Below are positions 9,471-52,301 of a stretch of DNA of 64,000 nt, piece by piece. Position 1 is the first letter of the stretch. Each line of letters starts with the position of its first letter. Below the pieces are notes generated by a model. It did not search any database. It saw nothing but the letters and a program-made list of their open reading frames with translations, and was not told the origin of the DNA. The position numbers were made by a program, and so were the translations under genes. Location: the NCBI RefSeq assembly GCF_054482525.1, contig NZ_CM137006.1; one strand, given 5' to 3'.

Positions 9471-10047
9471 CTAAGTATTGAATGGTGATGTGGTATTTAA
9501 AGACATGCTGCTCAATGCTGATTGGCACGCGTTTGCCCTTGCGATTCAAATAGGTGATTTCCGTGACCAGCTTGCCGCTGGCGTTACGCAGCTCGCGTTT
9601 GTCACCGTTGTCGCGAAGTGTCCAGCCAGTGGGAAGTTGCGGCTGCCAGGCGCTAATCGGCCAGTGGCTGAGCATCACGTCAGCCAGTACCTGACTTGCG
9701 GGCGGTAACTGTGGGACGACGATCGATTGCTCGGCGCGTAGCCCTTGCGCATCGTAGGTCACCAGAAACAGGCGAATGCCGACCGACGACAGTCCGGCAA
9801 GGGTGATTTTCTGGTCGTCGGCGTTAAGCATCACTAGCAGCGACTGGGTTTTGCCGTTGAAGCTGCCGGTCAACAGTTGCTGGGAATTGACGGCGGGTGA
9901 AATCCCCGGCGCAGGCAGCGTGATGCGCGTGCCAGGTTGCAGCCACGCTTGCGGGCGGCCTTCCTGTTCTGGTTGCGAGTGGCTACAGCCGGTGAGGATA
10001 AGCGTAGCGGTCAGGGCGAACGCTCGCCAGAATGTGGGTTTGATCAT
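9463..10047 (-). CDS. Lipoprotein of unknown function, DUF3261-like; apeN-like
   Basis: 194 aa ORF with signal peptide and lipobox LTGC; overlaps neighbouring genes at both ends. Confidence 0.7.
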   Translation of the reverse strand: MIKPTFWRAFALTATLILTGCSHSQPEQEGRPQAWLQPGTRITLPAPGISPAVNSQQLLTGSFNGKTQSLLVMLNADDQKITLAGLSSVGIRLFLVTYDAQGLRAEQSIVVPQLPPASQVLADVMLSHWPISAWQPQLPTGWTLRDNGDKRELRNASGKLVTEITYLNRKGKRVPISIEQHVFKYHITIQYLGD

Positions 10048-12362
10048 TTTTTTGTTCTCTTTTTATCGGGCATGGCCAGCGGCGAAAGCAGGAAGGCGGT
10101 GAAAATACCGCTCACCAGCACAATGCCAAAACTGCTGATGGCCTGGGTGGCGCTGAATACCAGCATTCCCAGCGTCAGCAAGGTGGTGAGCATTGCCAGC
10201 GTGATCGCCAGTAGCGAAGTTAATGGTGTGCCGCGCGGATTACTGAAAAACAGCGTGTAGTTGATGCCGATGCCAAGCACCAGTACCAGCGCCAGCAGCG
10301 AAAAGAGATTCACCGCCTGCCCGCTCATCGCCAGCACCGCCAGACCGCAGCCCAGTGAAAGCACCGAAGGCACCAGGCTGATAAACCCTTTGCGCCAGCC
10401 GAGGCGGGCCACTGCGCCGCAGGCAATTACTGCCAGCGCCACCAGCAACAAGCCGGTTAACACATAACGGTAAAGTGCGAACAATTCATCAAAGGTGTTT
10501 TTGCGATCAACCCAGGCAATGCCACAAGGGTAATAGCTGGAGATTTCCTGTAGCGCCGCGCTATTTTTAACCCCTTCAACCGGCACCAGCACGCCGCTTG
10601 CGCCATTTTCCAGCGTCAGCCACAGCAGACGCCAGCCTTCACTGGCGGGGCTTGCCAGCCATTCATCAACCTTCACTGGCATGGCGTTAAGATCCGGGTT
10701 CACCGCCGTCAGCCCGGCATTTTGCAGTGCTTTTGTTACCGTCGGGGCAGCCGTTTTCAGCAGGTCTAAATCTTCCTCCTGCCGCGCCAGGGAGTTCAGC
10801 GGAATGGTGCGGTAGTTGCTGATAAGGCCGTCTTTTTTCGCTTTCTCCAGCGAGGTGGTAAATGTCTCCAGCCGTCCCAAGGTTTGCTGTGACGAATCGC
10901 CGTAAACCACAAACCATTTTTGATCGACGCTTTGTCCGGTCAGGGCGGTGATGGCTTTCTCCTGCGCCAGAATATGCTGCGGTAGCGCCTGTAACTGCGA
11001 GATATCGTCATCGACGCACAGCATTGACATCCCCGCCAGCGAAAACAGCGCCAGCGCGACGGGCAGACCCCGCGACAGTTTTTTATTACGCCGCCACGCT
11101 GCCAGCCAGCGCAGCATCAGCGCCATCGCTGGAACCGGACGCACCGGCAGGCCACGGCACAGCCACGGATGCCAGAACAGGACGGTCAGACAGGAGGCGC
11201 TCAACCCGACGGCGGCAAAAATCGCCATCTGGCGAATGCCGGGGAAGGGGGCGAGCATCATAATCAGATACGCCGCCACGGTGGTGAGCAGCGCCAGCAG
11301 CAGGGCATTGCGCACTTTCGCCAGGCTTTGCCACGGCGAAACGTCATTGCCGTGCACCATCCGCTCGGTGAGGTAATAGAGCGTGTAGTCAGCGGAAATG
11401 CCGATAACGCTCATGCTCATCACCAGCGTCATCAGGTGTAATTCGCCGAAAATCAACAAGGTGGCGACCGTTCCCGCCAGCGCGCCGATGCCGATGGAAA
11501 TCACACACATCAGCAACGGGCGCAAAGAGCGGAACACCGCCACAATCAGCAATATCACCCCCAGCAGCGTTGCCACGCCCAGGGTGGAGATATCCTGCTT
11601 CGCCTGTTGGCTGGCGTAATCGCTGTAAAACACCGTGCCGCGTGAGAGCAACTGAGCCTGCGGGTAACGCGTTTTCAGATCCTTTTCCAGCGTATTCAGG
11701 GTCGTGATGAGCTGGTGGGTTTGCTGCATATCAAACGACGATCCCGCCAGTTCGCCGTGCAGCAGATACCAGTAGTTGCCCTGGGGATCCTGCGTCACCA
11801 GCCAGCCGTCCATCAGCCGCAAACGCTGGCCGTTTTTCGCCATCGCCAGCTGCGAGCCACGCATTAACATCAGCGGATCGTTTTGCAGCTCCTTACCGCT
11901 TACCCCGGAGAACGCAGAATAAAGCTGGGAGAGGATCCACTGCGCCTGCGCTTCGCCGCCGTTTTGCAGGCGCGCGCGGGTGTCGGGGTCAATCAGACCG
12001 TTGCGATGCTGCCAGAAAAACGCTCCCCACGCCTGCTGGCTGGCGGCATCCATTGGCCCTTTAACGTCGCCGAGCGCAGCGGATTTTTGCAGCAGCGTCA
12101 GCCACTCCTGAGCGACCCTGGGATTAGCCTCTTTACCGGGGCTGACCAGCCACACCAGTTGGCGGTCCAGACGCTGCATAAAGCCGTCATTCAGCGCTGG
12201 GGGAATATCGCCCATCGCCTGTTTGGGTAACATAGCCAGTACGCTACTGTTCAGTCGTGATTGCGGCAACAGGATCAGCAACGCCGCCGCCATGACCAGG
12301 CAGACGATCCCCCATAACAGCGCCGGGCGTTTACTGGGCGGCAAAACGTTGGCGTTCGTCAT
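10044..12362 (-). CDS. MMPL/RND-superfamily membrane exporter; apeM-like
   Basis: 772 aa ORF with two blocks of transmembrane helices separated by soluble domains, typical of MMPL lipid exporters. Confidence 0.8.
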   Translation of the reverse strand: MTNANVLPPSKRPALLWGIVCLVMAAALLILLPQSRLNSSVLAMLPKQAMGDIPPALNDGFMQRLDRQLVWLVSPGKEANPRVAQEWLTLLQKSAALGDVKGPMDAASQQAWGAFFWQHRNGLIDPDTRARLQNGGEAQAQWILSQLYSAFSGVSGKELQNDPLMLMRGSQLAMAKNGQRLRLMDGWLVTQDPQGNYWYLLHGELAGSSFDMQQTHQLITTLNTLEKDLKTRYPQAQLLSRGTVFYSDYASQQAKQDISTLGVATLLGVILLIVAVFRSLRPLLMCVISIGIGALAGTVATLLIFGELHLMTLVMSMSVIGISADYTLYYLTERMVHGNDVSPWQSLAKVRNALLLALLTTVAAYLIMMLAPFPGIRQMAIFAAVGLSASCLTVLFWHPWLCRGLPVRPVPAMALMLRWLAAWRRNKKLSRGLPVALALFSLAGMSMLCVDDDISQLQALPQHILAQEKAITALTGQSVDQKWFVVYGDSSQQTLGRLETFTTSLEKAKKDGLISNYRTIPLNSLARQEEDLDLLKTAAPTVTKALQNAGLTAVNPDLNAMPVKVDEWLASPASEGWRLLWLTLENGASGVLVPVEGVKNSAALQEISSYYPCGIAWVDRKNTFDELFALYRYVLTGLLLVALAVIACGAVARLGWRKGFISLVPSVLSLGCGLAVLAMSGQAVNLFSLLALVLVLGIGINYTLFFSNPRGTPLTSLLAITLAMLTTLLTLGMLVFSATQAISSFGIVLVSGIFTAFLLSPLAMPDKKRTKK

Positions 12363-12936
12363 CGGTCAGTTGCGCTGGCGTCAGTTGATGTTGGGTAAGA
12401 GCGATATCGGTGCGATCGCCCTGTTTATCATTAAGCTGAATGCTCTCCAGATAGGTTTGCCCGGCGAGATCGATGGTGTTGAAAATTTTATCCAGCGGCG
12501 TGGTGGTCGGCGTCAGGCGCAGTGTCCAGCGGCCTTCGCCTTTGTCAGCAAATTCGACGCGGAAGTTTTGTTCCAGCACTTTGCGATCGGCCTGGAACAG
12601 CGCGCGCAGCAGGTGGTTAAACTGGAACATCTGCGGGTTATTTTCTGCCGTGATAATTTGCGGCGGCTGACCGTTGATCACCTGCACCATGCGTTTATCG
12701 TCCAGCAATAGTTGCATGGGGAACGGTGAGGTTTGATCCCACAACAGCCCCTGGTCGCGGGCGATCAACATCTGGCCCTGAGATCGTAGCGGCTGCGGCA
12801 GATCTTTAATCGTCCGGGTTTGATCGAAATGGGCGCGGATCACTGGCTGTTCGGTAAAGCGTTGCTGAAGATCGTCCAGGTTCAGGGCGCTCACAAACGG
12901 GCTAATCAGCAGCGCCAGCAGCGGTAAAAATTTCAT
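12331..12936 (-). CDS. LolA-like outer-membrane lipoprotein carrier protein; apeL-like
   Basis: 201 aa ORF with signal peptide (MKFLPLLALLISPFVSA); size and composition fit the LolA/LolB fold. Confidence 0.7.
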   Translation of the reverse strand: MKFLPLLALLISPFVSALNLDDLQQRFTEQPVIRAHFDQTRTIKDLPQPLRSQGQMLIARDQGLLWDQTSPFPMQLLLDDKRMVQVINGQPPQIITAENNPQMFQFNHLLRALFQADRKVLEQNFRVEFADKGEGRWTLRLTPTTTPLDKIFNTIDLAGQTYLESIQLNDKQGDRTDIALTQHQLTPAQLTDDERQRFAAQ

Positions 12937-13355
12937 GGTTTGACTCCCATGCGTTCAAACAGAATATCGGGGCTGACAAAGCACAGTTCGCGGCTTTGCT
13001 CGTCGACCGCGACCTGAATGGTGTATCCGGTGGTGGCGCGTTTTCCCGTTTCGGCATCGAAAATCTGATAGCCAATCCGCAGACGGTTTTCGAACTCTTC
13101 GATATGCGCACGCACGCGGATGCGTTGCTCAAAGGTGAGGGCGTGGCGATATTTCACCCTCGCATCGACCACTGGCCACAAATAACCGGACTCTTTCATC
13201 TGCCGATAGCCGTAATTGAACTGGTTGAGCAGCGCCTCGCGGGCCACTTCAAAGTAGCGAAAATAGTTACCGTGCCAGGCCACGCCCATCATATCGACGT
13301 CGTGAAAGGGAATGGTCAGCTCGACTTCAGCGGTAAATCGGGGATCGTTAAGCAC
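12933..13355 (-). CDS. Acyl-CoA/acyl-ACP thioesterase, 4HBT/YbgC hotdog family; apeK-like
   Basis: 140 aa ORF with the N-terminal ...ELTIPFHDVDMMGVAWHGNYFRYFE... motif typical of 4HBT-type thioesterases. Confidence 0.75.
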   Translation of the reverse strand: MLNDPRFTAEVELTIPFHDVDMMGVAWHGNYFRYFEVAREALLNQFNYGYRQMKESGYLWPVVDARVKYRHALTFEQRIRVRAHIEEFENRLRIGYQIFDAETGKRATTGYTIQVAVDEQSRELCFVSPDILFERMGVKP

Positions 13356-13358
13356 CCT

Positions 13359-15035
13359 TTACTCCTTGTCCTGGACTTCCGGCAGTTGCCAGAAATCGAA
13401 AAAATTAAACCAGTCGAGGGGGGACTGGAGCGCGTAATATTCCAGACGCGCGGCGTAATGATCGATAGCGTTTTGCAGCGCCTGCTGGCGTTCGCCACGC
13501 GGCAACAGCAGCGGGTCGGCAAAGGTTTCGCAGTGAATATGCAGCTTGCCGTGCTGGCGCAGCGCGAAAATCAGATTCACCGGGCAGCGCAAAATAGACG
13601 CAAGAATAAACGGCCCCTGCGGGAAGGGCGCAGGCTGGCCCATAAACGGACTCCAGCAGACTCGCCAGTCGCCGCCGCGTTGCGGGTTGACGGCGATGCG
13701 GTCACCGACAATCGCCACCCATTCGCCGTTATCCAGCTTCTCTTTGAGCAGGATGGCGGTTTCTGGGCCGATATCCGTCACCGGGAGCAGGTTGATGCCT
13801 GCCTGCGGGGCCATCTCCTGCATTATCTGTTTAAAGCGTTGGGCGTTTTCGCTAAACACCAGCGCGTTAATGGTTTTGTAGCCCTGAATTTTTGCCAGCG
13901 CCCGGCACACTTCCACATCGCCAAGATGCGAGGCCAGCAGCAATTTGCCGCGCGGATCGCTGACGTTAAGTGCCGCTTCTGCGCCTGGTGCAAACAGCAC
14001 ATCACGCCCGAGTTGCAGCTCGCCGCGCCAGCTGGCGATTTTGTCGAGCATGGCGTTGCCGAAACGTAGAAAGTGCTGATAGCTGTTGATTTTTGCTGCC
14101 AGTGGTTGTTGTTGGCGCACACGGGCGAGCCAGGCTTGCGACGCTTTACGCGCACGAGCAGCGGTGAGCCAGTAGACGCCCACCACCGGGTAAAGCAGCG
14201 CGGTAAACGCAGTTCTTCCCAGCAGACGCCAGACCAGCAGCATCAGGCGCATTCCCCATAATCCTTTCACTTCGCTCTGCCGCGCCCAGTGGCTGGAAGA
14301 GCTGCGCATCAGCAGTGAAGGAATACGCGGCAACATGCCGAAAAACAGACGTGTGTGCATGAGCGAGATGCGGACGTTATCTTTCAGGGCATCAAAATGC
14401 GAAAGCCCGTCCAGTGGATAGGTGACGCGGGTCGGCACGAAATAGCTGGTGTTTCCCTGCCAGTAGAGGCGCACCATCACTTCAGTGTCGAAATCCATCC
14501 GCTTGCCGATGGTGGCGTATTTTGCCAGTTGCAGCGTTGGCGCAACCGGATAAACGCGAAAGCCGCACATGCTGTCTTTCAGTTGCAGGGAGAGCGTTTC
14601 GATCCATACCCAGACGTGGGTGACCCAGCGCCCGTACAGCCGTGAGCGGGGGATGGAGTCATCGTAAATCGGCTGGCCGGAGATCAGCGCCGCAGGCTGC
14701 TGTTCAGCGAGTGCCAGCAGTTTAGGGATGTCTTCAATCGCGTGCTGACCGTCAGCATCCACCTGTACCGCATGGCTGAAGCCCGCGTCTGCCGCCGCCT
14801 GTAAGCCGCGCATTACCGCCGCGCCTTTGCCTGCGTTTTCTGCCAGGCGAATTAAGGTCACGCCAGGCTGTTCGGCAACCAGATTATCCAGTTGCTGTTG
14901 CGTGGCGGCATCGCTGCCGTCATCCACCACAATACAGGGCAGATTAAATGGCTTAAGACGCGCCAGCACGCCCGGCATCATCGCACCGTGGTTGTAGCAG
15001 GGGATCAACACACAGGGAGAAAAGTTTACCGACAT
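13359..15035 (-). CDS. Two-domain protein: family 2 glycosyltransferase (N-terminal) fused to a lipid-A-type acyltransferase domain (C-terminal); apeJ-like
   Basis: 558 aa ORF; N-terminus CVLIPCYNHG...VVDDGSDA...VDADGQH is the GT2 signature (DxD-type); C-terminal half resembles LpxL/HtrB-like acyltransferases. Confidence 0.7.
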   Translation of the reverse strand: MSVNFSPCVLIPCYNHGAMMPGVLARLKPFNLPCIVVDDGSDAATQQQLDNLVAEQPGVTLIRLAENAGKGAAVMRGLQAAADAGFSHAVQVDADGQHAIEDIPKLLALAEQQPAALISGQPIYDDSIPRSRLYGRWVTHVWVWIETLSLQLKDSMCGFRVYPVAPTLQLAKYATIGKRMDFDTEVMVRLYWQGNTSYFVPTRVTYPLDGLSHFDALKDNVRISLMHTRLFFGMLPRIPSLLMRSSSSHWARQSEVKGLWGMRLMLLVWRLLGRTAFTALLYPVVGVYWLTAARARKASQAWLARVRQQQPLAAKINSYQHFLRFGNAMLDKIASWRGELQLGRDVLFAPGAEAALNVSDPRGKLLLASHLGDVEVCRALAKIQGYKTINALVFSENAQRFKQIMQEMAPQAGINLLPVTDIGPETAILLKEKLDNGEWVAIVGDRIAVNPQRGGDWRVCWSPFMGQPAPFPQGPFILASILRCPVNLIFALRQHGKLHIHCETFADPLLLPRGERQQALQNAIDHYAARLEYYALQSPLDWFNFFDFWQLPEVQDKE

Positions 15036-15409
15036 AGGCGGATCTTCCCGCTACTGGCGGTGTGGCGGGCGTCACCGTCGTGACGCTGATAGCTAAAGCT
15101 CAGAATCTGGCGTTCTTCCTGCCAGTTAAGCGTGAGCGTGACGCGGTTTTCCGGCAGCAACGGGGACTGGAATTTGATGTTCTGAATAGAGTGAAAACGC
15201 CAGCCAGGCGCGAGCAGGGCAAGCGCGTAGCTCATCGCCCAGTCGATTTGTGCAACTCCTGGAAGTAACGGCTGCACGGCAAAATGACCGCGAAACCAGA
15301 ACAGATCCGCCCTGAGATGCAGAACAATTTCAAGGTGATTCGCTTGTGCCTGATGGCGCTCGATTTCATGGGGCTTCATGAAATAACTCCTGTAATTGCG
15401 CATAGACAC
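15026..15409 (-). CDS. Hotdog-fold dehydratase, FabA/FabZ-like (DH); apeI-like
   Basis: 127 aa ORF (true start possibly the internal Met at about 15379); small hotdog protein overlapping both neighbours. Confidence 0.6.
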   Translation of the reverse strand: MSMRNYRSYFMKPHEIERHQAQANHLEIVLHLRADLFWFRGHFAVQPLLPGVAQIDWAMSYALALLAPGWRFHSIQNIKFQSPLLPENRVTLTLNWQEERQILSFSYQRHDGDARHTASSGKIRLCR

Positions 15410-16766
15410 GCTTGTTCATACTGTTTACTGGCATTTCATCAATAACGCGCCAGTAACGCGGAATAGCAACTGGCTCCAGGGTCGGGCGCAGTAATCGCCG
15501 CCAGGTCATTTCCTGGCTATGCCCGCCGCCGTTCTGCCATTGCAGATGAGCTTCGTCATCCAGCACCAGCAAAACGCCGATGCTCTGACGCCCGCCGCGC
15601 GTAACGGGAACTGCCGCCGCCTCGCGAATGCCGTCCAGCGCCAGCAGACGTTGTTCTACTTCCTGGAGTGAAATACGTTTTTCTTCAATCTTAACGATGC
15701 GCCCACGACGCCCCATCAGATGGAACTGACCGTCCTGGCTAAACTGCAAGAGATCGTCGAGCAACAGGCCGTTATCTTCCGCTATCAGCGGTGAAAAGAG
15801 GCGAAATGCTTCACCTTCGACCTGGAAGTGCATACCTGGAAAGGGCCGCCAGCGGCGTTGCTCTTGTTCGCGGTAACGCCAGGCAATGACGCCGGTTTCC
15901 GTGCTGCCGAAGATTTCATCAGGCCAGACGCGCAGCCAGCTCTCGGTATATTGTACGTCCTGCCACGGCAGCTCACCGCCAGCAGAGAGAAGCACCTGAA
16001 CAGGCGGCGGGGATAGCTGAGCATCCAGACGCTTCAAAAATGCCGGGCTGCTGATGAAGATATAGCGATGCTGGTGACTCAATGCGGCAAACTGTTCGAC
16101 ATACCAGAGCATGGCGGCGTGCAGCGGTAATCCCAGCGCCATTGGCAGGAAAACGCGAAAAGTCAGGCCGTACAAATGCTGCGGCAAAACGGAACCGACG
16201 ACACGACATCCGGCAAGACGTGCGCCTAATCGTTCAGCCAGCAGTTCTGCTTCACGGTCCAGCAAATGAACAGGCTTAATTACCCGCTTTGGCTGCCCCG
16301 TAGAACCGGAGGTAAACAGCTCGATATAAGCGTCTGGCGCTATAGCGGCAAAGGTGAATGATTGTGTCGCGACTTGTGGGGAACTTGCTACCAACAGCAA
16401 TGAACCTTGCCAGTTAAGTTCGCTGTCGCTAAGTACACCATCGAACAGTTCACGTTGCTCATTAAGCTGGATGACACGGTTATGCCCCGGAAGCACCGGC
16501 GTTTTTCCGGCGTGTAGCGTGGCGAGCAGGGCAACGATAAATAGATAGCTGTTCTCAAAGCACAGCGCCCAGCGTTCACCCGGCTGTTGCTGCAAGCGGC
16601 AGATAAGTTGCGCGACATCGTGACGCAAATCGCCCAGTGTCCACGAGCTTTCGTCCAGCCACGCAATGGGCGTGTCATCAGGGCGTGGCGCAGTCAGCCA
16701 GCGTGCAAGCGGTAAGGTCTGCTTCATGAGCGATCTCTTTTTATCACCTGACGGCGCACCAGCCAT
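15366..16766 (-). CDS. AMP-dependent ligase (acyl-ACP/CoA synthetase-like adenylating enzyme); apeH-like
   Basis: 466 aa ORF with AMP-binding core motif TSGSTGQPKRV; the start may be the internal Met (MKQTLPL...) at about 16727. Confidence 0.8.
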   Translation of the reverse strand: MAGAPSGDKKRSLMKQTLPLARWLTAPRPDDTPIAWLDESSWTLGDLRHDVAQLICRLQQQPGERWALCFENSYLFIVALLATLHAGKTPVLPGHNRVIQLNEQRELFDGVLSDSELNWQGSLLLVASSPQVATQSFTFAAIAPDAYIELFTSGSTGQPKRVIKPVHLLDREAELLAERLGARLAGCRVVGSVLPQHLYGLTFRVFLPMALGLPLHAAMLWYVEQFAALSHQHRYIFISSPAFLKRLDAQLSPPPVQVLLSAGGELPWQDVQYTESWLRVWPDEIFGSTETGVIAWRYREQEQRRWRPFPGMHFQVEGEAFRLFSPLIAEDNGLLLDDLLQFSQDGQFHLMGRRGRIVKIEEKRISLQEVEQRLLALDGIREAAAVPVTRGGRQSIGVLLVLDDEAHLQWQNGGGHSQEMTWRRLLRPTLEPVAIPRYWRVIDEMPVNSMNKRVYAQLQELFHEAP

Positions 16767-17305
16767 TCACCTGCCATTAACGTTCCCATCAACAAATAAG
16801 CAATCATGCCGTTCCAGGCGGTCCATAACGACATATCGCCATAAAGCGCGGTAAAGAGGGCAATTCCGCCGTTAATGATGAAAAAGCCGCACCAGATTTG
16901 CGTGACACGGCGGGTATAGCGCACGCCCTTTTCCGGGAGGTCTGGCTCCTGCAAACGTGCCAGCCGCTCAACTATCGGCATTGTCGACCACAGCGAACCG
17001 CCAAAAACCGCCAGCATGATCGCGTTAACCACTACCGGGTAAAACAGCAGTAGCTGGTGCGTTTTCAACAGAAAGCTGGCGACACACAATGCGATGCCCA
17101 CGACAGCGACGATTTGTGTGACGGCTTGTAGCGGCCCCGCCCGGCGACGGGTCTGGCGCAGGCGCAACAAAAGCAGCAACGCTATTAGCGGCAACAACCA
17201 GTGCAGGCCGTTATGCGCCAGGCCAAACCAAATCACAAACGGCCAGGCGAGCAGCAATAATCCAGTCAGCAGCTTAATCATCGGTAGCGAGCGAATGCCC
17301 GACAT
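16724..17305 (-). CDS. Small integral membrane protein of unknown function; apeG-like
   Basis: 193 aa ORF with several hydrophobic helices; coding-dense position inside the cluster. Confidence 0.6.
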   Translation of the reverse strand: MSGIRSLPMIKLLTGLLLLAWPFVIWFGLAHNGLHWLLPLIALLLLLRLRQTRRRAGPLQAVTQIVAVVGIALCVASFLLKTHQLLLFYPVVVNAIMLAVFGGSLWSTMPIVERLARLQEPDLPEKGVRYTRRVTQIWCGFFIINGGIALFTALYGDMSLWTAWNGMIAYLLMGTLMAGEWLVRRQVIKRDRS

Positions 17306-17309
17306 CAGA

Positions 17310-17561
17310 TCAGGCTTCTTGTAGCAGGCGTTCTACAGCCTCTACGACATCCTGAACTGTGCGCACTGCTTTAAACTCTTCCGGCTTGATTTTCTTACCG
17401 GTTTTCTTTTGCAGGTGCACAATCATGTCAACGGCGTCGATGCTGTCCAGTTCCAGATCTTCGTACAGGCGCGCTTCAGGTTTGATGTCCTGCGGATCGA
17501 TTTCAAACAGCTTAACCAGCAGGGCTGAGACTTCCTGATAGACGGTTTGTTGTTCTGTCAT
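17310..17561 (-). CDS. Acyl carrier protein; apeF-like
   Basis: 83 aa acidic ORF with the phosphopantetheine attachment motif LELDSIDAVDMI. Confidence 0.85.
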   Translation of the reverse strand: MTEQQTVYQEVSALLVKLFEIDPQDIKPEARLYEDLELDSIDAVDMIVHLQKKTGKKIKPEEFKAVRTVQDVVEAVERLLQEA

Positions 17562-17572
17562 GATGGCTTTCC

Positions 17573-17830
17573 TCAGGCACGTTGCGCAGCAATGAAAGAG
17601 GCCAGAGTGGCGACGGAGAAAAAGTGCTGACGCATCTCTTCACTTTCCGCAGAAAGTACAACGCCATATTGATTTTTCACTGCCAGCCCCAGTTCCAGGG
17701 CATCGATGGAATCCAGTCCTAAACCGTCGCCGAACAGCGGCGCATCGGTCTCGATATCATCAGGAGTCAACTCGTCCAGATTGAGGGTACTGATGATGAG
17801 GTTTTTAATTTCCAGATAAAGCGCTTGCAT
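17573..17830 (-). CDS. Acyl carrier protein; apeE-like
   Basis: 85 aa ORF with LGLDSIDALELG attachment motif; tandem with the second ACP gene. Confidence 0.85.
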   Translation of the reverse strand: MQALYLEIKNLIISTLNLDELTPDDIETDAPLFGDGLGLDSIDALELGLAVKNQYGVVLSAESEEMRQHFFSVATLASFIAAQRA

Positions 17831-18644
17831 TATTTATTCCTGAGAGAGGTAAACAACCTTGTTGTAATTGAAGCAAAAGATGCCGGTTTAACTGCCTTGC
17901 TGCCAGCGCCGGTTCTTGTGAAGTTGCATCGTAAAATTTATTGATTTCAACCCGACCATGGACTTCAACCGTAAAAAACGGCCGGTCAGGTGGAACGTCA
18001 TACCATTTACTTTGTTTATCCAGCAGATGCTCGCTACAGCCGATCGTCACGATGCGTAAATCGCTGGCACAGCGCACGGCAATATTCGCCGCCCCGCGCT
18101 GCAGCGTCATTTTTTCACCGGGCTTCGTTCGCGTGCCTTCGGGGAAAATCAGGATAGTGTCACCCTGTGCCAGTCGCTGTTGGCAGCGGGGTAACAGGGT
18201 TTCAGCTTCGCTGTTGATTAAATAATCTGCCGCCCGCACGACGCCGCCAAGAAAAGGATTTTTTAACAGCGCGCTTTTCACCAGGCAGTCAGTTTCTGGC
18301 ATGACTGACGCCAGCAGCACGTAATCGATCAGCGTGGGATGATTGGCTACGACGAGGCAACCGCGTTCCTGACGTAAAATTTCAGCGCCATCAATACGAT
18401 AATCCAGCACGCCAAGCCCTTTCGCGACAGTTAAAAACAGGCGAAAACTGGCGGCAATGCTGCGACGCGCCAAACGACGGCGGCGGGAAGTATCCCACAC
18501 CAAAACTAACAATATGTTAAACCACACGACAGAAAGCAGCAGGCCGCCGAGACCAAACAGGGCAAAACATAACCCGGTCATGACCAGTCGCCAGGTCCAC
18601 TCCAGACGTGACATCAGCTTACTCATCTGCGGCTCCAGCGCCAT
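17805..18644 (-). CDS. Lysophospholipid (PlsC-type) acyltransferase; apeD-like
   Basis: 279 aa ORF with N-terminal transmembrane segment and H(X)4D-type motif NHPTLID; likely start at the Met giving an ATGA overlap with the upstream stop near 18626. Confidence 0.75.
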   Translation of the reverse strand: MALEPQMSKLMSRLEWTWRLVMTGLCFALFGLGGLLLSVVWFNILLVLVWDTSRRRRLARRSIAASFRLFLTVAKGLGVLDYRIDGAEILRQERGCLVVANHPTLIDYVLLASVMPETDCLVKSALLKNPFLGGVVRAADYLINSEAETLLPRCQQRLAQGDTILIFPEGTRTKPGEKMTLQRGAANIAVRCASDLRIVTIGCSEHLLDKQSKWYDVPPDRPFFTVEVHGRVEINKFYDATSQEPALAARQLNRHLLLQLQQGCLPLSGINNASALSGN

Positions 18645-19345
18645 TGCACGCGCTCGCCAGGCAGTGAAAATGCGTCTGCATTTTGTAAATAGTGCTGTAA
18701 AAACAACATGCTTTGCGGCAGTGATGTTTCATTGCCCGCAATGGCTGACTGCGTTTCACATTGCCAGTCATCGCCAGCTTCAATCACCAGCGCGACGGCG
18801 TACGGCCAGGTCGGCATTTCTGATGGCAGTTGTGGGTGATAAAACTCAGGCAGAAAGCCATCAAAATCGACCATCAGCACGCGCTGGTATCCCGCTTGTA
18901 ACAGGCTAAGCACTTCACACAAACCTTGCTGGAAAGTGTCGCGACCAGCAGAAAGCGATGACGAAACGATCGGCTGTTTGGCCGCAATGGTCAGGTTACC
19001 CACGGAAGAGTTGTGTACGGAGAGCGCGAAGTCGGTCGGAGAAAGCGCCTGTTCAGTTGCCAGTGCATGAACAATGCGGTAATTGCGCTCCAGTTCGCCA
19101 TGACGACTGGTATACAAAACGGCGTCTGGCTGATGGCGGCGTAGCATTGCCAGACCGCATTCAACAGCCAGTTTGCTGCCTGAACTAAGGCGGCGGGCGG
19201 TCATCATTGGCAGTTCACTTAATTTTGCCAACGGCGCGGCAGGGTCAATCGCCCACGGCTGGCGCGACCATGCTTGCCATTGCTGCGCTTCGCTAAGTCC
19301 AGGCGCCAGTGCCTGCCAGTCGGTAATATTTAATGTAAATTTCAT
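18623..19345 (-). CDS. Beta-ketoacyl synthase N-terminal-domain protein lacking the catalytic Cys (chain-length-factor-like); apeC-like
   Basis: ORF track gives 18623..19369 (248 aa); probable start MKFTLNITDW at about 19345. About half the size of a full KS with no active-site Cys motif recognisable. Confidence 0.6.
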   Translation of the reverse strand: MKFTLNITDWQALAPGLSEAQQWQAWSRQPWAIDPAAPLAKLSELPMMTARRLSSGSKLAVECGLAMLRRHQPDAVLYTSRHGELERNYRIVHALATEQALSPTDFALSVHNSSVGNLTIAAKQPIVSSSLSAGRDTFQQGLCEVLSLLQAGYQRVLMVDFDGFLPEFYHPQLPSEMPTWPYAVALVIEAGDDWQCETQSAIAGNETSLPQSMLFLQHYLQNADAFSLPGERVQWRWSRR

Positions 19346-19385
19346 CAACGCGCGCCCGCGGTAAACCAAAATTATTAAGTGACGA

Positions 19386-20453
19386 TTATTTCTTTTGGCA
19401 TATCAAAAGTGTATGCCCAACGCCTAAATTATCGTGGCGCTCTGCTACCTGGAATCCTGCTTTATTCAGATAGTCGTAAAATTTCTCTGCACTATAGAAA
19501 CGGCTGTTACCGTTTGCCATGCAGGTAAAATAAAGTGAGGACGCGTTCAGGCTAAATGATGCTGCTTCAAACCGCTGCGCATCCCAGAACAACTCCATGA
19601 TGCAAACTTTTGCGCCAGGCTTCATTACGCTGGCGATTTTGCTGAGTATGCTAATTATTTGTTCGGGTGAAAAACAGTCTAAAAATTGGCTCATCCACCA
19701 GATATCAGCCTCGCCCGGTAATGGGGCATCGCTTAGCATATCCACCGCATGGAAATCTATGCGATCAGAAAAACCTGCATTCGCGATATTTTCTTTCGCT
19801 AGTACGATTTGTTGTGGCAGATCTAATAACGTCACGGCGATGTTTTCATTGTATTTGCAGCAACGCAAAGCCCACTTACCCGTATTGCCGCCTACATCGT
19901 ACAATGTTGTGGGGTTGTTGGCGAATACATAAGGCAGTGCGGCGTTAAATGCGCCATCTGAATAGTAATGATCAAACGCAAACCAGCTTTCACGAGCGGC
20001 GTCTGGTAATTGTGAAAGTGCCGGATATATCGTCGGCCAGTCGCCAAATACTTTTAACCCGGACGGTTTTCCTTCATTGAGTGAATCGGCGAGGAAGAAG
20101 AGCCCCTGGTAACAGACATCCTGGGTGAAATCCATATTCACGCGAGTCATAGTGTCATGCAGGAGGTAATGACCGATTTTCGCCAGGTAATACATTCCCT
20201 CTTTACAGGTAATAATTCGCCCGCTTAAGCCCATATCTAACAGAACGCTGGCCGCATATTCGTTGATATGGCTATGTTCGGTGATATCAGCCAGCGTTGC
20301 GCCATGTTTGCCTTGCCGATCCAGATATGAAAGTACACCCGCATTACGTAGGCAGAGTGCTGTTTGAAAAAGCATAGGGGCAAAGGCAATGCGTTGAGCT
20401 TCGGTAATCGCATCCAGTGCGCTAAGAGAATCCTGTTCGTACATGTTGGGCAC
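19386..20453 (-). CDS. SAM-dependent methyltransferase (O-methyltransferase family); apeB-like
   Basis: 355 aa ORF with glycine-rich SAM-binding motif LYDVGGNTGKWAL and C-terminal catalytic region. Confidence 0.8.
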   Translation of the reverse strand: MPNMYEQDSLSALDAITEAQRIAFAPMLFQTALCLRNAGVLSYLDRQGKHGATLADITEHSHINEYAASVLLDMGLSGRIITCKEGMYYLAKIGHYLLHDTMTRVNMDFTQDVCYQGLFFLADSLNEGKPSGLKVFGDWPTIYPALSQLPDAARESWFAFDHYYSDGAFNAALPYVFANNPTTLYDVGGNTGKWALRCCKYNENIAVTLLDLPQQIVLAKENIANAGFSDRIDFHAVDMLSDAPLPGEADIWWMSQFLDCFSPEQIISILSKIASVMKPGAKVCIMELFWDAQRFEAASFSLNASSLYFTCMANGNSRFYSAEKFYDYLNKAGFQVAERHDNLGVGHTLLICQKK

Positions 20454-20512
20454 AACCTGTTAAGAGGGAATTAAATTATTATCGGACCGCAGCGGCCCGA
20501 CTTTAGGAAGAA

Positions 20513-20902
20513 TTATAAATCTGCGCCCGCTGACAAATTCAGTTGAATATCTTTGTCGAGATTGCGGACCCAGCGATTGTAGTTTTTATGAATTTGTCCG
20601 CCTGACGCTTGTAGGTTCTGGCTATTTTCATAATTGATATCGTAGCTGGATGCCGTGTAGTTAATGCGAATTTCGGCTGAATGATCGCGTGACTGTTGAC
20701 GTGCTTTAATTACGCCTTGTCCGGCTTCGGACATAATCCATTTGCGTTCAACGCCAGCTTTCAGAATCGCTTTTTTCACTTGTTCCTGGGTATGACCAGC
20801 GCTGACGGTTGAGTGAACCTGATCAATTGGCGCAGTACGCGCGCAACCCGCTAAAGCACCCACAACAGCAATAGCCGCAAACCATTTCATGTAATGTCTC
20901 AT
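20513..20902 (-). CDS. Small lipoprotein of unknown function; first gene of the cluster
   Basis: 129 aa ORF with signal peptide and lipobox LAGC; its start codon lies inside the IS1 target duplication. True start may be the second Met (MKWFAA...). Confidence 0.6.
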   Translation of the reverse strand: MRHYMKWFAAIAVVGALAGCARTAPIDQVHSTVSAGHTQEQVKKAILKAGVERKWIMSEAGQGVIKARQQSRDHSAEIRINYTASSYDINYENSQNLQASGGQIHKNYNRWVRNLDKDIQLNLSAGADL

Positions 20903-20904
20903 TA
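20896..20904. repeat. IS1 target-site duplication, left copy (gtctcatta)
   Basis: 9 bp direct repeat identical to 21673-21681, directly flanking the IS1 ends. Confidence 0.85.
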
Positions 20905-20919
20905 GGTAATGACTCCAAC

Positions 20920-21423
20920 TTATTGATAGTGTTTTATGTTCAGATAATGCCCGATGACTTTGTCATGCAGCTCCACCGATTTTGAAAACGACAGCGACTT
21001 CCGTCCCAGCCGTGCCAGGTGCTGCCTCAGATTCAGGTTATGCCGCTCAATTCGCTGCGTATATCGCTTGCTGATTACGTGCAGCTTTCCCTTCAGGCGG
21101 GATTCATACAGCGGCCAGCCATCCGTCATCCATATCACCACGTCAAAGGGTGACAGCAGGCTCATAAGACGCCCCAGCGTCGCCATAGTGCGTTCACCGA
21201 ATACGTGCGCAACAACCGTCTTCCGGAGCCTGTCATACGCGTAAAACAGCCAGCGCTGGCGCGATTTAGCCCCGACGTATCCCCACTGTTCGTCCATTTC
21301 CGCGCAGACGATGACGTCACTGCCCGGCTGTATGCGCGAGGTTACCGACTGCGGCCTGAGTTTTTTAAGTGACGTAAAATCGTGTTGAGGCCAACGCCCA
21401 TAATGCGGGCGGTTGCCCGGCAT
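20920..21423 (-). CDS. insB: IS1 transposase InsB
   Basis: 167 aa ORF matching IS1 InsB (…[54 protein letters not shown]…). Confidence 0.9.
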
Positions 21424-21617
21424 CCAACGCCATTCATGGCCATATCAATGATTTTCTGGTGCGTACCGGGTTGAGAAGCGGTGTAAGTGAACTGCAGTTG
21501 CCATGTTTTACGGCAGTGAGAGCAGAGATAGCGCTGATGTCCGGCGGTGCTTTTGCCGTTACGCACCACTCCGTCAGTAGCTGAACAGGAGGGACAGCTG
21601 ATAGAAACAGAAGCCAC
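21342..21617 (-). CDS. insA: IS1 protein InsA
   Basis: 91 aa [46 protein letters not shown]... matching IS1 InsA. Confidence 0.9.
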
Positions 21618-21672
21618 TGGAGCACCTCAAAAACACCATCATACACTAAATCAGTAAGTTGGCAGCATCACC

Positions 21673-21681
21673 GTCTCATTA
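21673..21681. repeat. IS1 target-site duplication, right copy (gtctcatta)
   Basis: Identical to 20896-20904. Confidence 0.85.
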
Positions 21682-42413: not shown

Positions 42414-43318
<905 letters not shown>

Positions 43319-43960
43319 TTTTCCAGGAGATGCTCCTGCATGGCTTTCAGATATGCATTTTCTGCGCGAAGATAACGCAGCTCATTCTTCATCTCTTCCG
43401 GCGTCATGTTTGCCTCGTTTTCATGGGTATCATCAGAACGGGTCATGCTTTTCTCCTTCCTGCGCCTGATAAAGGCCTCATTACCAGATTTGCGGTAGCC
43501 TTTTATCCAGTTTTTAACCGTGTTGTGGCTGGGAATGTTAAACCGGGCAGCTACCCGGGGTAGAGACTCAGAATGCCCGAGAGCATAAAGAACCACGCAA
43601 AGTTTATCTTCAGGAGAATAGCTACGCTTGTGTCTGCAATCCAGTGCCCGAGGACCGTGAAGAAGAAAAAGATTAATCCAGTGTGAGAGGCTGGTGTGAG
43701 AAAGTTGAAAGAGTTTTGCCGTAGAAATGATGCCTGCATGACCAGCCAGGTAGTGATTTACAGCGGCAAGTTTTACTTCAAATGAATGTTTCATAAACTG
43801 CACCTTCAGATGTCAGATTATGTCCAACATTTGGGGTGCAGTTCATACGCCGCATCCGGCATGAAACGATGAGCAATCTGTAGAGTTTGATTCAGACCTT
43901 CTATTTTTCCCGCTTATCCGTGCCCCATCTCCCATTTTCCCTCACACGTACCGTCACCGC

Positions 43961-44097: not shown

Positions 44098-45414
44098 ATG
44101 AAACCGTTACATTATACAGCTTCAGCACTGGCGCTCGGACTGGCGTTAATGGGGAATGCACAGGCAGTGACGACCATTCCGTTCTGGCATTCTATGGAAG
44201 GGGAACTGGGTAAAGAGGTGGATTCTCTGGCCCAACGTTTTAACGCCGAAAACCCGGATTACAAAATTGTACCGACCTATAAAGGCAACTACGAACAGAA
44301 TTTAAGCGCGGGGATTGCCGCATTTCGTACCGGCAACGCGCCTGCTATTTTGCAGGTTTATGAAGTTGGCACCGCCACCATGATGGCGTCGAAGGCCATT
44401 AAACCGGTGTATGACGTGTTTAAAGAGGCGGGGATTCAGTTCGATGAGTCGCAGTTTGTGCCGACGGTTTCAGGCTACTACTCCGACAGCAAAACCGGCC
44501 ACTTACTCTCCCAGCCGTTCAACAGCTCGACTCCCGTTCTCTATTACAACAAAGACGCCTTCAAGAAAGCCGGTTTAGACCCGGATCAGCCGCCGAAAAC
44601 CTGGCAGGATCTGGCGGACTATGCCGCAAAACTGAAAGCCTCCGGTATGAAGTGCGGCTACGCCAGCGGCTGGCAGGGCTGGATCCAACTGGAAAACTTT
44701 AGCGCCTGGAACGGTCTGCCGTTTGCCAGCAAAAACAACGGCTTTGACGGCACAGACGCGGTGCTGGAGTTCAACAAGCCGGAGCAGGTGAAACACATCG
44801 CTATGCTCGAAGAGATGAACAAGAAGGGCGATTTCAGCTACGTCGGGCGTAAGGATGAATCCACTGAGAAGTTCTATAACGGTGATTGCGCGATGACCAC
44901 CGCCTCTTCCGGTTCTCTCGCCAACATTCGCGAGTACGCCAAATTTAACTACGGCGTAGGCATGATGCCTTACGACGCCGATGCGAAAGATGCGCCACAA
45001 AACGCCATTATCGGCGGAGCCAGCTTGTGGGTAATGCAGGGTAAAGATAAAGAAACTTATACGGGTGTGGCGAAGTTCCTCGACTTCCTCGCGAAGCCAG
45101 AAAACGCTGCCGAGTGGCATCAGAAAACTGGTTATCTGCCAATCACCAAAGCGGCGTATGACCTGACCCGTGAGCAGGGTTTTTATGAGAAAAACCCAGG
45201 GGCGGATACCGCGACGCGTCAGATGCTGAATAAGCCGCCGTTACCGTTCACCAAAGGGCTGCGTCTGGGCAACATGCCGCAGATCCGCGTGATTGTGGAT
45301 GAAGAGCTGGAGAGCGTGTGGACCGGTAAGAAGACGCCACAGCAGGCGCTGGATACCGCCGTTGAGCGTGGGAATCAGTTACTGCGCCGCTTTGAGCAGT
45401 CTACGAAGTCTTAA
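44098..45414 (+). CDS. ugpB: sn-glycerol-3-phosphate periplasmic binding protein UgpB
   Basis: 438 aa ORF with signal peptide [23 protein letters not shown]. Confidence 0.95.
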
Positions 45415-45420
45415 TTCTCT

Positions 45421-45575
45421 TACCCTCACCCTAACCCTCTCCCAAAGGGAGAGGGGACCGATCGGCGTGGTATCCAGGTGCCGTGTCGGTTTGCAACTTC
45501 GCTCGGTGGGAAAGTATGCACCGCCTTTCTCCCTCGCCCCTCTGGGGAGAGGGCCGGGGTGAGGGGAACACAACA
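45421..45575. repeat. GC-rich intergenic palindromic repeat (boxC-like), long copy with two inverted arms
   Basis: Left arm ccctcaccctaaccctctccc and right arm gggagagggccggggtgagggg are inverted copies; the left part matches the element at 26250-26300. Confidence 0.5.
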
Positions 45576-45589
45576 CGAAGAGTTTAACT

Positions 45590-46477
45590 ATGTCATCATC
45601 CCGTCCGGTGTTCCGCTCGCGCTGGCTGCCCTATTTGCTGGTCGCGCCGCAGCTCATCATCACCGTTATCTTTTTTATCTGGCCTGCGGGCGAAGCGTTG
45701 TGGTACTCGCTGCAAAGCGTCGATCCGTTTGGTTTCTCCAGCCAGTTTGTCGGCCTGGATAACTTCGTCACGCTGTTTCATGACAGCTACTATCTCGACT
45801 CCTTCTGGACGACGATAAAATTCAGCACCTTTGTCACCGTCAGTGGTTTGCTGGTGTCGCTGTTCTTTGCGGCGCTGGTGGAGTACATCGTGCGCGGCAG
45901 CCGTTTCTATCAAACCTTGATGCTGCTGCCGTATGCCGTGGCTCCCGCCGTTGCCGCCGTATTGTGGATCTTCCTGTTTAACCCTGGTCGCGGGCTGATC
46001 ACCCATTTTCTCGCTGAGTTCGGCTACGACTGGAACCACGCGCAAAACAGCGGTCAGGCGATGTTTCTGGTGGTGTTTGCCTCGGTGTGGAAGCAAATCA
46101 GCTACAACTTCCTGTTCTTCTATGCCGCGCTGCAATCCATTCCCCGTTCGTTGATCGAAGCCGCAGCCATCGACGGTGCAGGCCCGATTCGCCGCTTCTT
46201 TAAGATTGCGCTGCCGCTTATCGCTCCGGTGAGTTTCTTCCTGCTGGTGGTGAACCTGGTATACGCCTTCTTCGACACCTTCCCGGTGATCGACGCCGCC
46301 ACGTCCGGCGGGCCGGTTCAGGCCACCACGACGCTGATTTATAAGATTTACCGCGAAGGCTTTACCGGACTGGATCTGGCTTCGTCTGCCGCGCAGTCGG
46401 TGGTGTTGATGTTCCTCGTCATCGTGCTGACGGTGGTGCAGTTCCGCTATGTTGAAAGCAAGGTGCGTTACCAATGA
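45590..46477 (+). CDS. ugpA: Glycerol-3-phosphate ABC permease UgpA
   Basis: 295 aa hydrophobic permease ORF. Confidence 0.9.
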
Positions 46478-49677: not shown

Positions 49678-51420
49678 ATGATAAAACCGACGTTTTTACG
49701 CCGGGTGGCCATTGCTGCTCTGCTCTCAGGAAGTTGTTTTAGCGCCGCCGCCGCGCCTCCTCCGCCACCTGTTTCTTATGGCGTGGAGGAAGATGTCTTC
49801 CATCCGGTACGCGCGAAACAGGGGATGGTGGCGTCTGTAGATGCTACTGCCACTCAGGTGGGGGTGGATATCCTCAAGGAGGGCGGGAATGCCGTTGATG
49901 CCGCCGTGGCTGTGGGCTACGCGCTGGCGGTAACGCATCCGCAGGCAGGGAATCTGGGCGGTGGTGGTTTTATGCTGATCCGCTCGAAAAATGGCAATAC
50001 CACCGCTATCGATTTCCGCGAAATGGCACCCGCCAAAGCGACCCGCGATATGTTCCTCGATGACCAGGGCAACCCGGACAGCAAAAAATCACTCACTTCG
50101 CATCTGGCCTCCGGTACGCCAGGTACGGTCGCAGGTTTCTCGCAGGCGCTGGAGAAGTACGGCACCATGCCGTTAAATAAAGTGGTGCAGCCGGCGTTTA
50201 AACTGGCACGCGATGGTTTTATCGTTAATGACGCGCTGGCTGACGATCTCAAAACCTACGGTAGCGAAGTGTTGCCGAATCACGAAAACAGCAAGGCTAT
50301 CTTCTGGAAAGAGGGCGCGCCGCTGAAAAAGGGCGACAAGCTGGTGCAGGCGAACCTGGCAAAGAGCCTGGAGATGATTGCCGAAAACGGCCCGGACGAA
50401 TTCTACAAAGGCACAATAGCGGAGCAGATCGCTCAGGAGATGCAGAAAAACGGTGGCTTGATCACTAAAGAAGATTTAGCGGCGTATAAAGCGGTCGAAC
50501 GTACACCGATTAGCGGCGAATATCGCGGGTATCAGGTTTACTCGATGCCACCGCCATCTTCCGGTGGGATTCATATCGTGCAGATCCTCAATATCCTGGA
50601 AAACTTCGATATGCAGAAATACGGCTTTGGCAGCGCCGATGCGATGCAAATCATGGCAGAAGCGGAGAAATACGCCTACGCCGACCGCTCGGAATATCTT
50701 GGCGATCCGGATTTTGTGAAAGTCCCGTGGCAGGCGCTGACCAATAAAGCCTATGCCAAATCTATTGCCGATCAAATCGATATCAATAAAGCGAAGCCAT
50801 CCAGCGAAATTCGCCCCGGCAAGCTTGCGCCTTATGAGAGTAATCAAACTACCCATTACTCAGTGGTGGATAAAGACGGCAACGCGGTAGCGGTGACCTA
50901 TACGCTGAACACCACCTTCGGTACGGGCATTGTCGCGGGTGATAGCGGTATTCTGCTTAATAACCAAATGGATGATTTCTCCGCCAAACCTGGCGTACCG
51001 AACGTTTACGGGCTGGTGGGCGGTGACGCCAACGCGGTCGGGCCGAATAAACGCCCGCTGTCGTCGATGTCCCCAACCATTGTGGTGAAAGACGGTAAAA
51101 CCTGGCTGGTTACCGGTAGCCCTGGCGGGAGCCGGATTATCACCACCGTGCTGCAAATGGTAGTGAATAGTATCGATTATGGCATGAACGTCGCCGAAGC
51201 GACCAATGCGCCGCGTTTCCACCATCAGTGGTTGCCGGACGAGCTGCGTGTCGAAAAAGGGTTTAGCCCGGATACGATCAAGCTGCTGGAAGCAAAAGGT
51301 CAGAAAGTGGCGCTGAAAGAGGCGATGGGCAGTACACAAAGCATTATGGTTGGGCCTGACGGTGAGCTGTACGGTGCATCTGACCCGCGCTCGGTAGATG
51401 ATTTAACGGCGGGGTATTAA
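49678..51420 (+). CDS. ggt: Gamma-glutamyltranspeptidase
   Basis: ORF track 49651..51420; likely start MIKPTFLRRVAIAALLSGSCFSAAAA at 49678 (580 aa); catalytic Thr region present (...NQTTHYSVVDKDGNAVAVTYTLNTTFGTG...). Confidence 0.9.
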   Translation: MIKPTFLRRVAIAALLSGSCFSAAAAPPPPPVSYGVEEDVFHPVRAKQGMVASVDATATQVGVDILKEGGNAVDAAVAVGYALAVTHPQAGNLGGGGFMLIRSKNGNTTAIDFREMAPAKATRDMFLDDQGNPDSKKSLTSHLASGTPGTVAGFSQALEKYGTMPLNKVVQPAFKLARDGFIVNDALADDLKTYGSEVLPNHENSKAIFWKEGAPLKKGDKLVQANLAKSLEMIAENGPDEFYKGTIAEQIAQEMQKNGGLITKEDLAAYKAVERTPISGEYRGYQVYSMPPPSSGGIHIVQILNILENFDMQKYGFGSADAMQIMAEAEKYAYADRSEYLGDPDFVKVPWQALTNKAYAKSIADQIDINKAKPSSEIRPGKLAPYESNQTTHYSVVDKDGNAVAVTYTLNTTFGTGIVAGDSGILLNNQMDDFSAKPGVPNVYGLVGGDANAVGPNKRPLSSMSPTIVVKDGKTWLVTGSPGGSRIITTVLQMVVNSIDYGMNVAEATNAPRFHHQWLPDELRVEKGFSPDTIKLLEAKGQKVALKEAMGSTQSIMVGPDGELYGASDPRSVDDLTAGY

Positions 51421-51424
51421 TATC

Positions 51425-51455
51425 TTAAGCCCTCTCCCGATAGGCGAGGGCTTAA
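51425..51455. terminator. Putative bidirectional terminator hairpin between convergent ggt and yhhY
   Basis: ttaagccctctcc-cgatag-gcgagggcttaa inverted repeat in the 60 bp gap. Confidence 0.5.
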
Positions 51456-51480
51456 ATGACAAACTTAGATTGCAAATTCT

Positions 51481-52090: not shown

Positions 52091-52180
52091 GCGATCAGGA
52101 AGACCCTCGCGGAGAACCTGAAAGCACGACATTGCTCACATTGCTTCCAGTATTACTTAGCCAGCCGGGTGCTGGCTTTT
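52091..52180 (+). ncRNA. ryhB: Iron-responsive small regulatory RNA RyhB
   Basis: The 90 nt sequence gcgatcaggaagaccctcgcggagaacctgaaagcacgacattgctcacattgcttccagtattacttagccagccgggtgctggctttt matches RyhB as I remember it, ending in a terminator hairpin (gccagccgggtgctggc) plus U-run; lies between yhhY and yhhX. Confidence 0.9.
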
Positions 52181-52301
52181 TTTTGATCTTTCGTTTTCAA
52201 TTTATCCACGGGAAGTGCTTGTGTTCGTTATGCGCACTCCAGTAGGAACCACGTCCGCTTTGCGCTAAGGTGTAAATAATCACCTTAAAAAGGACGAAAT
52301 C

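Follow-up and report, generated by a model that had tools for sequence, protein, structure and literature searches.

What is the long palindrome that separates ugpB from ugpA in an Escherichia coli chromosome, and could it act on the expression of the operon in which it lies? The window analysed here, a stretch of 64,000 nucleotides of contig NZ_CM137006.1 (assembly GCF_054482525.1), is part of an E. coli chromosome; the queried 401 nt were 100% identical to several complete genomes, e.g., those of strains 1190 and PCN033. An original prediction, made from the letters of the sequence, had placed two inverted arms around about 100 nt between the two genes, had seen in them a copy of a GC-rich repeat, and had proposed that a large stem-loop in the operon transcript affects the mRNA stability of the binding-protein gene versus the permease genes.

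An inverted BoxC pair between ugpB and ugpA

The stop codon of ugpB occupies 45412-45414 and the ATG of ugpA starts at 45590 (Table 1). An inverted-repeat search of the sequence recovered the arm pair together with a perfect 9-bp hairpin (45435-45443/45447-45455). The left arm, ccctcaccctaaccctctccc, spans 45423-45443 and the right arm, gggagagggccggggtgagggg, 45545-45566; the arms were thus found exactly, 101 nt apart, and the palindrome fills the spacer. It is indeed a repeat copy: with up to 3 mismatches, the 21-mer of the arm is present at three sites in the window (45423; 45545 on the minus strand; 26255) against 0 expected from shuffles. The family had gone unrecognised in the original prediction. 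It is BoxC, later renamed PIT (potential intrastrand triplex) and then TM_ECO (Bergler 1992; Hoyne and Maher 2000; Holder et al. 2015, PMC4666352).

The palindrome is an inverted pair of these repeats, one unit of type A and one of type B. The consensus CCCTCNCCC-N3-6-GGGNGAGGG-N3-GGGNGAGGG, taken from PMC4666352, was matched twice in the 64 kb, by the two ugp units, with 0 matches expected from 100 shuffles. The type is set by the second loop, TTA in A and CCG in B (PMC4666352), and the ugp pair has one loop of each kind. The same combination is seen in strain K-12, where 23 TM_ECO units include five sites with inverted pairs, each of type A plus type B (Holder et al. 2015, PMC4666352). BoxC is always intergenic, which holds for this pair too, bounded as it is by ugpB and ugpA, and E. 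coli genomes have short BoxC units at 18 places each (median), in keeping with a multicopy family. Both the family and its inverted-pair arrangement are already known, so the ugp copy is a further member, which may be among the 63 TM_ECO loci catalogued by Holder et al. 2015 (PMC4666352). The REP consensus (GCCGGATG...CATCCGGC, GTAGGCC-type motifs) is not present in the spacer, which was classed as BoxC by motif count. The K-12 repeat listing also includes an approximately 150-nt "RSA" repeat. An Rfam scan of the whole window at the gathering threshold gave no hit in the spacer, the permissive best in the spacer reaching 17.7 bits against a threshold of 37; the only gathering-threshold hit of the window was the small RNA RyhB at 52120-52184 (83.1 bits).

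Table 1. Coordinates of the ugpB-ugpA junction, of its repeat units and predicted helices, and of the separate BoxC copy in the window
Feature	Position	Strand	Basis or remark
ugpB (periplasmic sn-glycerol-3-phosphate binding protein), upstream cistron	44098-45414	+	ORF; 100% match to annotated ugpB of E. coli strain 1190
ugpB-ugpA intercistronic spacer, 175 nt, BoxC-pair allele	45415-45589	+	
BoxC/TM_ECO unit, type A	45423-45455	-	minus strand CCCTCTCCC-TTT-GGGAGAGGG-TTA-GGGTGAGGG; exact consensus match
Outer closing helix, 5' strand	45423-45432	+	pairs with 45556-45565; begins 8 nt past the ugpB stop codon
Local 9-bp GC-rich hairpin of the type A unit, CCCUCUCCC-AAA-GGGAGAGGG	45435-45455	+	arms 100% complementary
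Composite interior: hairpin 45456-45491 (ACCGATCGGCG...GCCGTGTCGGT) and hairpin 45505-45525 (CGGTG...CACCG)	45456-45530	+	predicted fold
BoxC/TM_ECO unit, type B, one mismatch	45531-45566	+	CCCTCGCCC-CTCTG-GGGAGAGGG-CCG-GGGTGAGGG-G; exact consensus match (45531-45565)
Outer closing helix, 3' strand	45556-45565	+	end 24 nt upstream of the ugpA ATG
ugpA translation start region	45574-45592	+	weak GAAGAG Shine-Dalgarno, then ATG 45590
ugpA (permease), downstream cistron	45590-46477	+	ORF and annotation match
Separate single BoxC copy, zntA-tusA spacer	26255-26330	+	ortholog of K-12 TM_ECO no. 16; match and Table 1 of PMC4666352

The third arm site belongs to the single BoxC copy of the zntA-tusA spacer. 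That copy has lost the strict triplex motif by a single base change (GGGGCG to GGAGCG), and a second conserved hairpin (ACCGATCGCG...GCGATCGGT) lies downstream. The 5' part of the ugp composite interior is similar to the extension of this copy at 26292-26325. The best full-length match to the ugp composite elsewhere was the lldD-trmL pair, 71% identical.

Two other readings of the spacer were tried and rejected. The composite has the terminal inverted repeats of a MITE, but as a whole unit it is not multicopy: its 76-nt interior was found at the ugp locus only, as a single copy in each of 316 E. coli genomes. The flanks, TTCTCTTA and GAACACAA, have no common direct repeat that would represent a target-site duplication. 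With a single-copy interior and no visible target-site duplication, an active multicopy MITE was dismissed. A pattern scan of 45415-45589 (for terminators on either strand) returned no terminator-like or promoter-like site, and with the scan empty there a terminator or promoter was discarded as well. The right arm is followed by AACACAACACG, without the U-tract of an intrinsic terminator.

Alleles of the junction in E. coli and in other genera

Strain K-12 has a different ugpB-ugpA spacer, 97 nt long and with a classical REP. From stop codon to ATG the BoxC-pair spacer and the K-12 REP spacer have no homology, and the Shine-Dalgarno region of ugpA also differs by allele, being GAAGAG with the BoxC pair and CAGGAA with the REP. 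Among 5426 complete E. coli genomes, 5105 (94%) have the K-12-type REP spacer at ≥95% identity, whereas the BoxC pair at ≥98.7% identity is present in 316-317 (about 6%). Together the two cover 5422 of the 5426 genomes; E. coli is thus cleanly dimorphic at this junction, with either a REP or a BoxC pair. Carriers of the BoxC pair were at least 98.8% identical over the 401-nt query, in contrast to at most 97.4% in the flanks of non-carriers, and since the flanking haplotype is common to the carriers and distinct from non-carriers, it points to one carrier lineage. Carrier strain names such as ST70 O7:H15, PCN033 and O78:H4 APEC may indicate phylogroups D and G. Variation in the sampled carriers was confined to three sites, one in a loop, one that keeps a G-U pair and one in an interior stem, and no length variants were present. 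A third Escherichia allele was met in a GTDB representative labelled E. coli SCPM-O-B-8794 (L006:3318-3417), whose 100-nt REP spacer is about 70% identical to that of K-12 and by eye resembles the version of Citrobacter youngae, with flanking genes 95% identical to K-12.

The window diverges from K-12 by 2-5% along its full length, the identity per kb being 94.5 to 99.6%, without a step at the spacer. UgpB shares 99% identity with the E. coli representative and 98% with that of E. albertii, and at most 92% with those of other genera. A recent recombinational import of the BoxC allele was rejected on these grounds, i.e., the missing identity step at the spacer and a UgpB of normal Escherichia closeness.

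Elsewhere the window departs from K-12 by larger insertions and losses. A 1.43-kb insertion (42414-43846) lies between livF and ugpB, its end 252 nt ahead of the ugpB ATG. The HTH transposase and rve integrase domains of its two minus-strand ORFs identify it as an insertion sequence of the IS3 family; strain 1190, otherwise identical at the ugp spacer, lacks it. This insertion could affect the upstream ugp promoter region. A 16-kb segment adjoining acpT (5892-22063), absent from K-12, encodes ketosynthases, a ketoreductase, an MMPL-type transporter, a family-2 glycosyltransferase, an AMP-ligase, an acyltransferase and an O-methyltransferase, and presumably resembles the aryl-polyene-type lipid gene cluster of some E. 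coli. At 20905-21672 lies an IS1 copy with 99.2% identity to IS1E. Between ggt and yhhY, the 3.4-kb K-12 segment 3581628-3585081 (yhhZ, yrhA with IS1E, yrhD, yrhB) is missing, and about 58 nt (51420-51478) stand in its place.

A UgpB scan of species-representative genomes yielded 80 Enterobacterales loci, and spacers were extracted from 79; these and the window spacer, 80 in all, were classified by motif. BoxC-type were 15 of the 80, the window and 14 representatives of other genera: Pseudocitrobacter, Superficieibacter, Phytobacter (two), Kluyvera, Pluralibacter, Enterobacter (three), Leclercia, strain RIT691, Buttiauxella (two) and Serratia grimesii (L067), the last with a single BoxC unit and no pair. 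Kosakonia oryzendophytica (L035) has a further, degenerate BoxC pair. A BoxC pair at ugpB-ugpA thus occurs in at least 13 species representatives from other genera, and recurs across at least 10 genera. REP or BIME sequences were found in 24 of the 80 spacers and other hairpins in 40, including short non-repeat hairpins in taxa without repeats. One spacer, that of Leclercia adecarboxylata (L032:2846-3000), is chimeric, with a BoxC-like hairpin CCCTCATCCCAACCCTCTCCCACAGGGAGAGGG between the two REPs of a BIME.

The position of the pair is nearly the same in all of these genera. In the 13 measured pairs, the left arm starts 7-15 nt past the ugpB stop codon; on the other side, the end of the right arm is 21-30 nt (once 42) upstream of the ugpA ATG. 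The interior ranges from 5 nt, where the pair has shrunk to one hairpin, to 233 nt, where an inner module is duplicated in tandem. Two species (L018, L025) have the A and B units in inverted order. The collapsed pairs of L029 and L016 form one perfect hairpin each. Tandem duplications of the inner module (GGGGAC-NGTYCGG...CGG-NGCCGTCTTTCTCC) were located at L009:3318-3625, L025:3318-3571, L047:3309-3496 and L019:3318-3535, the carriers being Superficieibacter, Enterobacter sp. CC120223-11, Buttiauxella A111 and Kluyvera, with spacers of up to 308 nt. Across the BoxC alleles the long-range arm pairs were 99.2% intact with 3 compensatory pair changes, a result reached by 2 of 500 column shuffles; the complementarity of the arms could also be explained by palindrome-internal gene conversion or concerted evolution without selection on the RNA. 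The K-12-type REP spacer (L002:113-209) is 89.7% identical to that of Pseudocitrobacter faecalis (L050:3318-3414), as against about 71% at third codon positions of the flanking ugpB and ugpA, which suggests, from the comparison of sequences, constraint on the spacer or horizontal exchange. A fixed linkage of the REP allele to the CAGGAA Shine-Dalgarno was considered and weakened, as REP alleles of Buttiauxella and Cedecea keep the AAGAG type.

Predicted structure and candidate function

The large stem-loop expected in the operon transcript is borne out by the computed folds, in which it is very stable. The RNA of the spacer (45415-45589) folds at -83.9 kcal/mol (z = -4.1), a value matched by 0 of 200 dinucleotide shuffles; the minus-strand RNA gives -84.0 (z -5.0). 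Two iso-energetic topologies were obtained, a long hairpin (-83.9 kcal/mol) and an outer helix around several local hairpins (-82.9 kcal/mol), and the 10-bp helix 45423-45432/45556-45565 closes both. Upon prefix folding in 5'-to-3' direction the local hairpins form first, the earliest being 45435-45455 with -18.4 kcal/mol. In the minimum-energy fold a weak stem extension, 45417-45421, pairs with the GAAGAG Shine-Dalgarno; it is missing from the centroid structure, and in the predicted ensemble the mean probability of being unpaired is 0.53 for the ugpA Shine-Dalgarno and 0.77 for the AUG. The spacer RNA is therefore predicted to be a compound GC-rich hairpin of -83 to -84 kcal/mol with a mostly open ugpA ribosome-binding site. 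Irrespective of the repeat present, 70 of the 80 ugpB-ugpA spacers fold with z < -2, the median being -4.6.

The classical REP cases are junctions of binding-protein and permease genes. REPs have been reported to stabilise upstream mRNA, among others at pstS, another binding-protein gene of the Pho regulon, and also to attenuate transcription and to bind several proteins (PMC3333891). As best explanation we propose, at an even chance of being correct, that the BoxC pair has taken the slot of the REP, forms a stable RNA hairpin and has a REP-like effect on ugpB versus ugpAEC mRNA. The pair lies within the ugpBAECQ transcript, and read-through is expected because a U-tract is lacking. The hairpin would begin 8 nt past the ugpB stop codon and end 24 nt before the ugpA AUG. 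Once an endonuclease had cut downstream, the hairpin would stop 3'-to-5' exonucleases, so that the ugpB part of the message would decay later than the ugpAEC part and binding protein would be produced in excess of the membrane subunits. As for its origin, the element probably came in, and has been maintained, as a repeat of the genome prone to recombination, with any RNA role co-opted. The REP-like role draws its main support from the near-universal presence of a strong hairpin at the junction. The differential stability of the ugpB and ugpAEC mRNA, as put forward originally, is plausible, given the analogy to REPs and the comparative pattern. That REP and BoxC pair are interchangeable modules, an old cross-genus dimorphism selected for a 3' hairpin behind the binding-protein gene, is a broader claim which we rather doubt.

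The recurrence of palindromic repeats in the spacer could mean just a tolerated landing site. A neutral repeat, i.e., a BoxC pair without role in ugp expression in a spacer that tolerates insertion, expansion and exchange of palindromes, is possible, if on the unlikely side. The content of the spacer turns over between REP, BoxC pair, REP with nested BoxC hairpin, collapsed hairpins and others, close relatives differ, interiors of 5 to 233 nt occur, some duplicated in tandem, and Holder et al. saw neither a consistent relation of TM_ECO positions to ORFs or operons nor a functional bias (PMC4666352). Against neutrality stand a strong hairpin kept in nearly all lineages (z < -2 in 70 of 80), short non-repeat hairpins included, element edges at constant distances from stop codon and ATG, and a REP allele conserved above synonymous sites. 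The cause may also be sought in the DNA: an intrastrand triplex on single-stranded DNA, or a hairpin or cruciform, would stall replication or repair and create a rearrangement hotspot, with the dimorphism as consequence. We consider this unlikely as the explanation of the locus. The isolated G-rich consensus strand adopts an intrastrand purine-motif triplex in vitro, stable in the consensus oligonucleotides for which it was shown; TM_ECO loci are far more variable among E. coli strains than control spacers, and palindromic pairs show characteristic partial deletions (PMC4666352). The junction itself presents collapse (L029, L016), A/B inversion (L018, L025) and duplications (L009, L025, L047), and the single-stranded DNA of the spacer is predicted to fold at -41.3 kcal/mol (z -4.3). 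Against it stand in vivo footprinting without sign of a stable triplex (PMC4666352) and the stability of the allele within E. coli, where 316 genomes are ≥98.7% identical and the sampled carriers have no length variants; moreover, DNA instability explains variability, but not the retention of a hairpin at the junction. It is compatible with an RNA role, the two not being mutually exclusive.

The sign of the effect could also be the opposite. The outer helix lies within the footprint of the terminating ribosome and could lower rather than raise UgpB output, on the basis of REPs close to stop codons, which reportedly do so according to Liang, Rudd and Deutscher in 2015. A structure that attenuates transcription into ugpAEC, or disturbs the termination of ugpB translation or the initiation of ugpA translation, seems quite improbable to us. 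The start of the outer helix so close behind the stop codon, the weak pairing of 45417-45421 with the Shine-Dalgarno and the difference of the Shine-Dalgarno region between the two E. coli alleles speak for such damping, and BIME-associated transcription attenuation is on record as far as the reference list of PMC3333891 goes. Yet the spacer has neither U-tract nor terminator pattern, and the occluding extension is not part of the centroid, Shine-Dalgarno and AUG being mostly unpaired in the ensemble. In earlier tests PIT elements acted neither as promoter nor as terminator and left RNA polymerase unaffected, which, like the lack of a consistent relation of TM_ECO positions to ORFs or operons, counts against the REP-like reading too; the properties reported as tested did not include mRNA decay (PMC4666352).

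A REP-like function of the BoxC pair would be the first RNA-level role of BoxC, a repeat whose function has been unknown since the 1990s. A search of the literature on the function of the ugp REP or of BoxC returned nothing beyond Holder 2015 and general REP reviews. As far as found, the REP/BoxC dimorphism at one E. coli junction is apparently undescribed, and so is the recurrence of a BoxC pair at ugpB-ugpA across at least 10 genera. BoxC/PIT/TM_ECO repeats are abundant in enterobacteria, and so far they have been linked to one property only, the variability of the genome around them; here a pair sits at exactly the place where REPs are believed to tune the amount of binding protein against that of the membrane subunits in ABC-transporter operons. 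With the REP version in about 5100 complete genomes and the BoxC version in about 316, E. coli offers a natural allele-swap test of a REP-like BoxC function. Should BoxC have no such RNA role, the locus would still show cleanly how repeats turn over at one fixed operon junction in many genera.

Comparison with known repeat systems

Among the BoxC pairs of K-12, that of lldD-trmL is alike in its outward-facing architecture and has a related interior. The ugp pair differs from the K-12 pairs in the distance of the cores, 75 nt compared to 16-59 nt, in its location inside an operon between two cistrons, at a locus where K-12 has none, and in its single-copy interior. With MITE-, ERIC- and IRU-type repeats the ugp composite has in common a length of about 145 nt, terminal inverted repeats and a long hairpin when transcribed, but it shows no visible target-site duplication and only its BoxC ends are multicopy. 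To our knowledge, neither a dedicated transposase of BoxC nor a partner transposase of the BoxC composite is known, while REPs have RAYT/TnpA-REP. We likewise know of no demonstration of an mRNA-stabilising activity of BoxC.

Other close counterparts are the REP and BIME elements of malE-malF, hisJ-hisQ, pstS-pstC and K-12 ugpB-ugpA, whose slot the BoxC pair fills identically in the ugp operon. Both kinds of element follow the stop codon by a few nucleotides, form a stable GC-rich stem-loop without U-tract, are dispersed palindromic repeats and are polymorphic between strains. They differ in having no sequence similarity and in the predicted fold, about -84 kcal/mol for the BoxC pair and about -50 kcal/mol for the REP.
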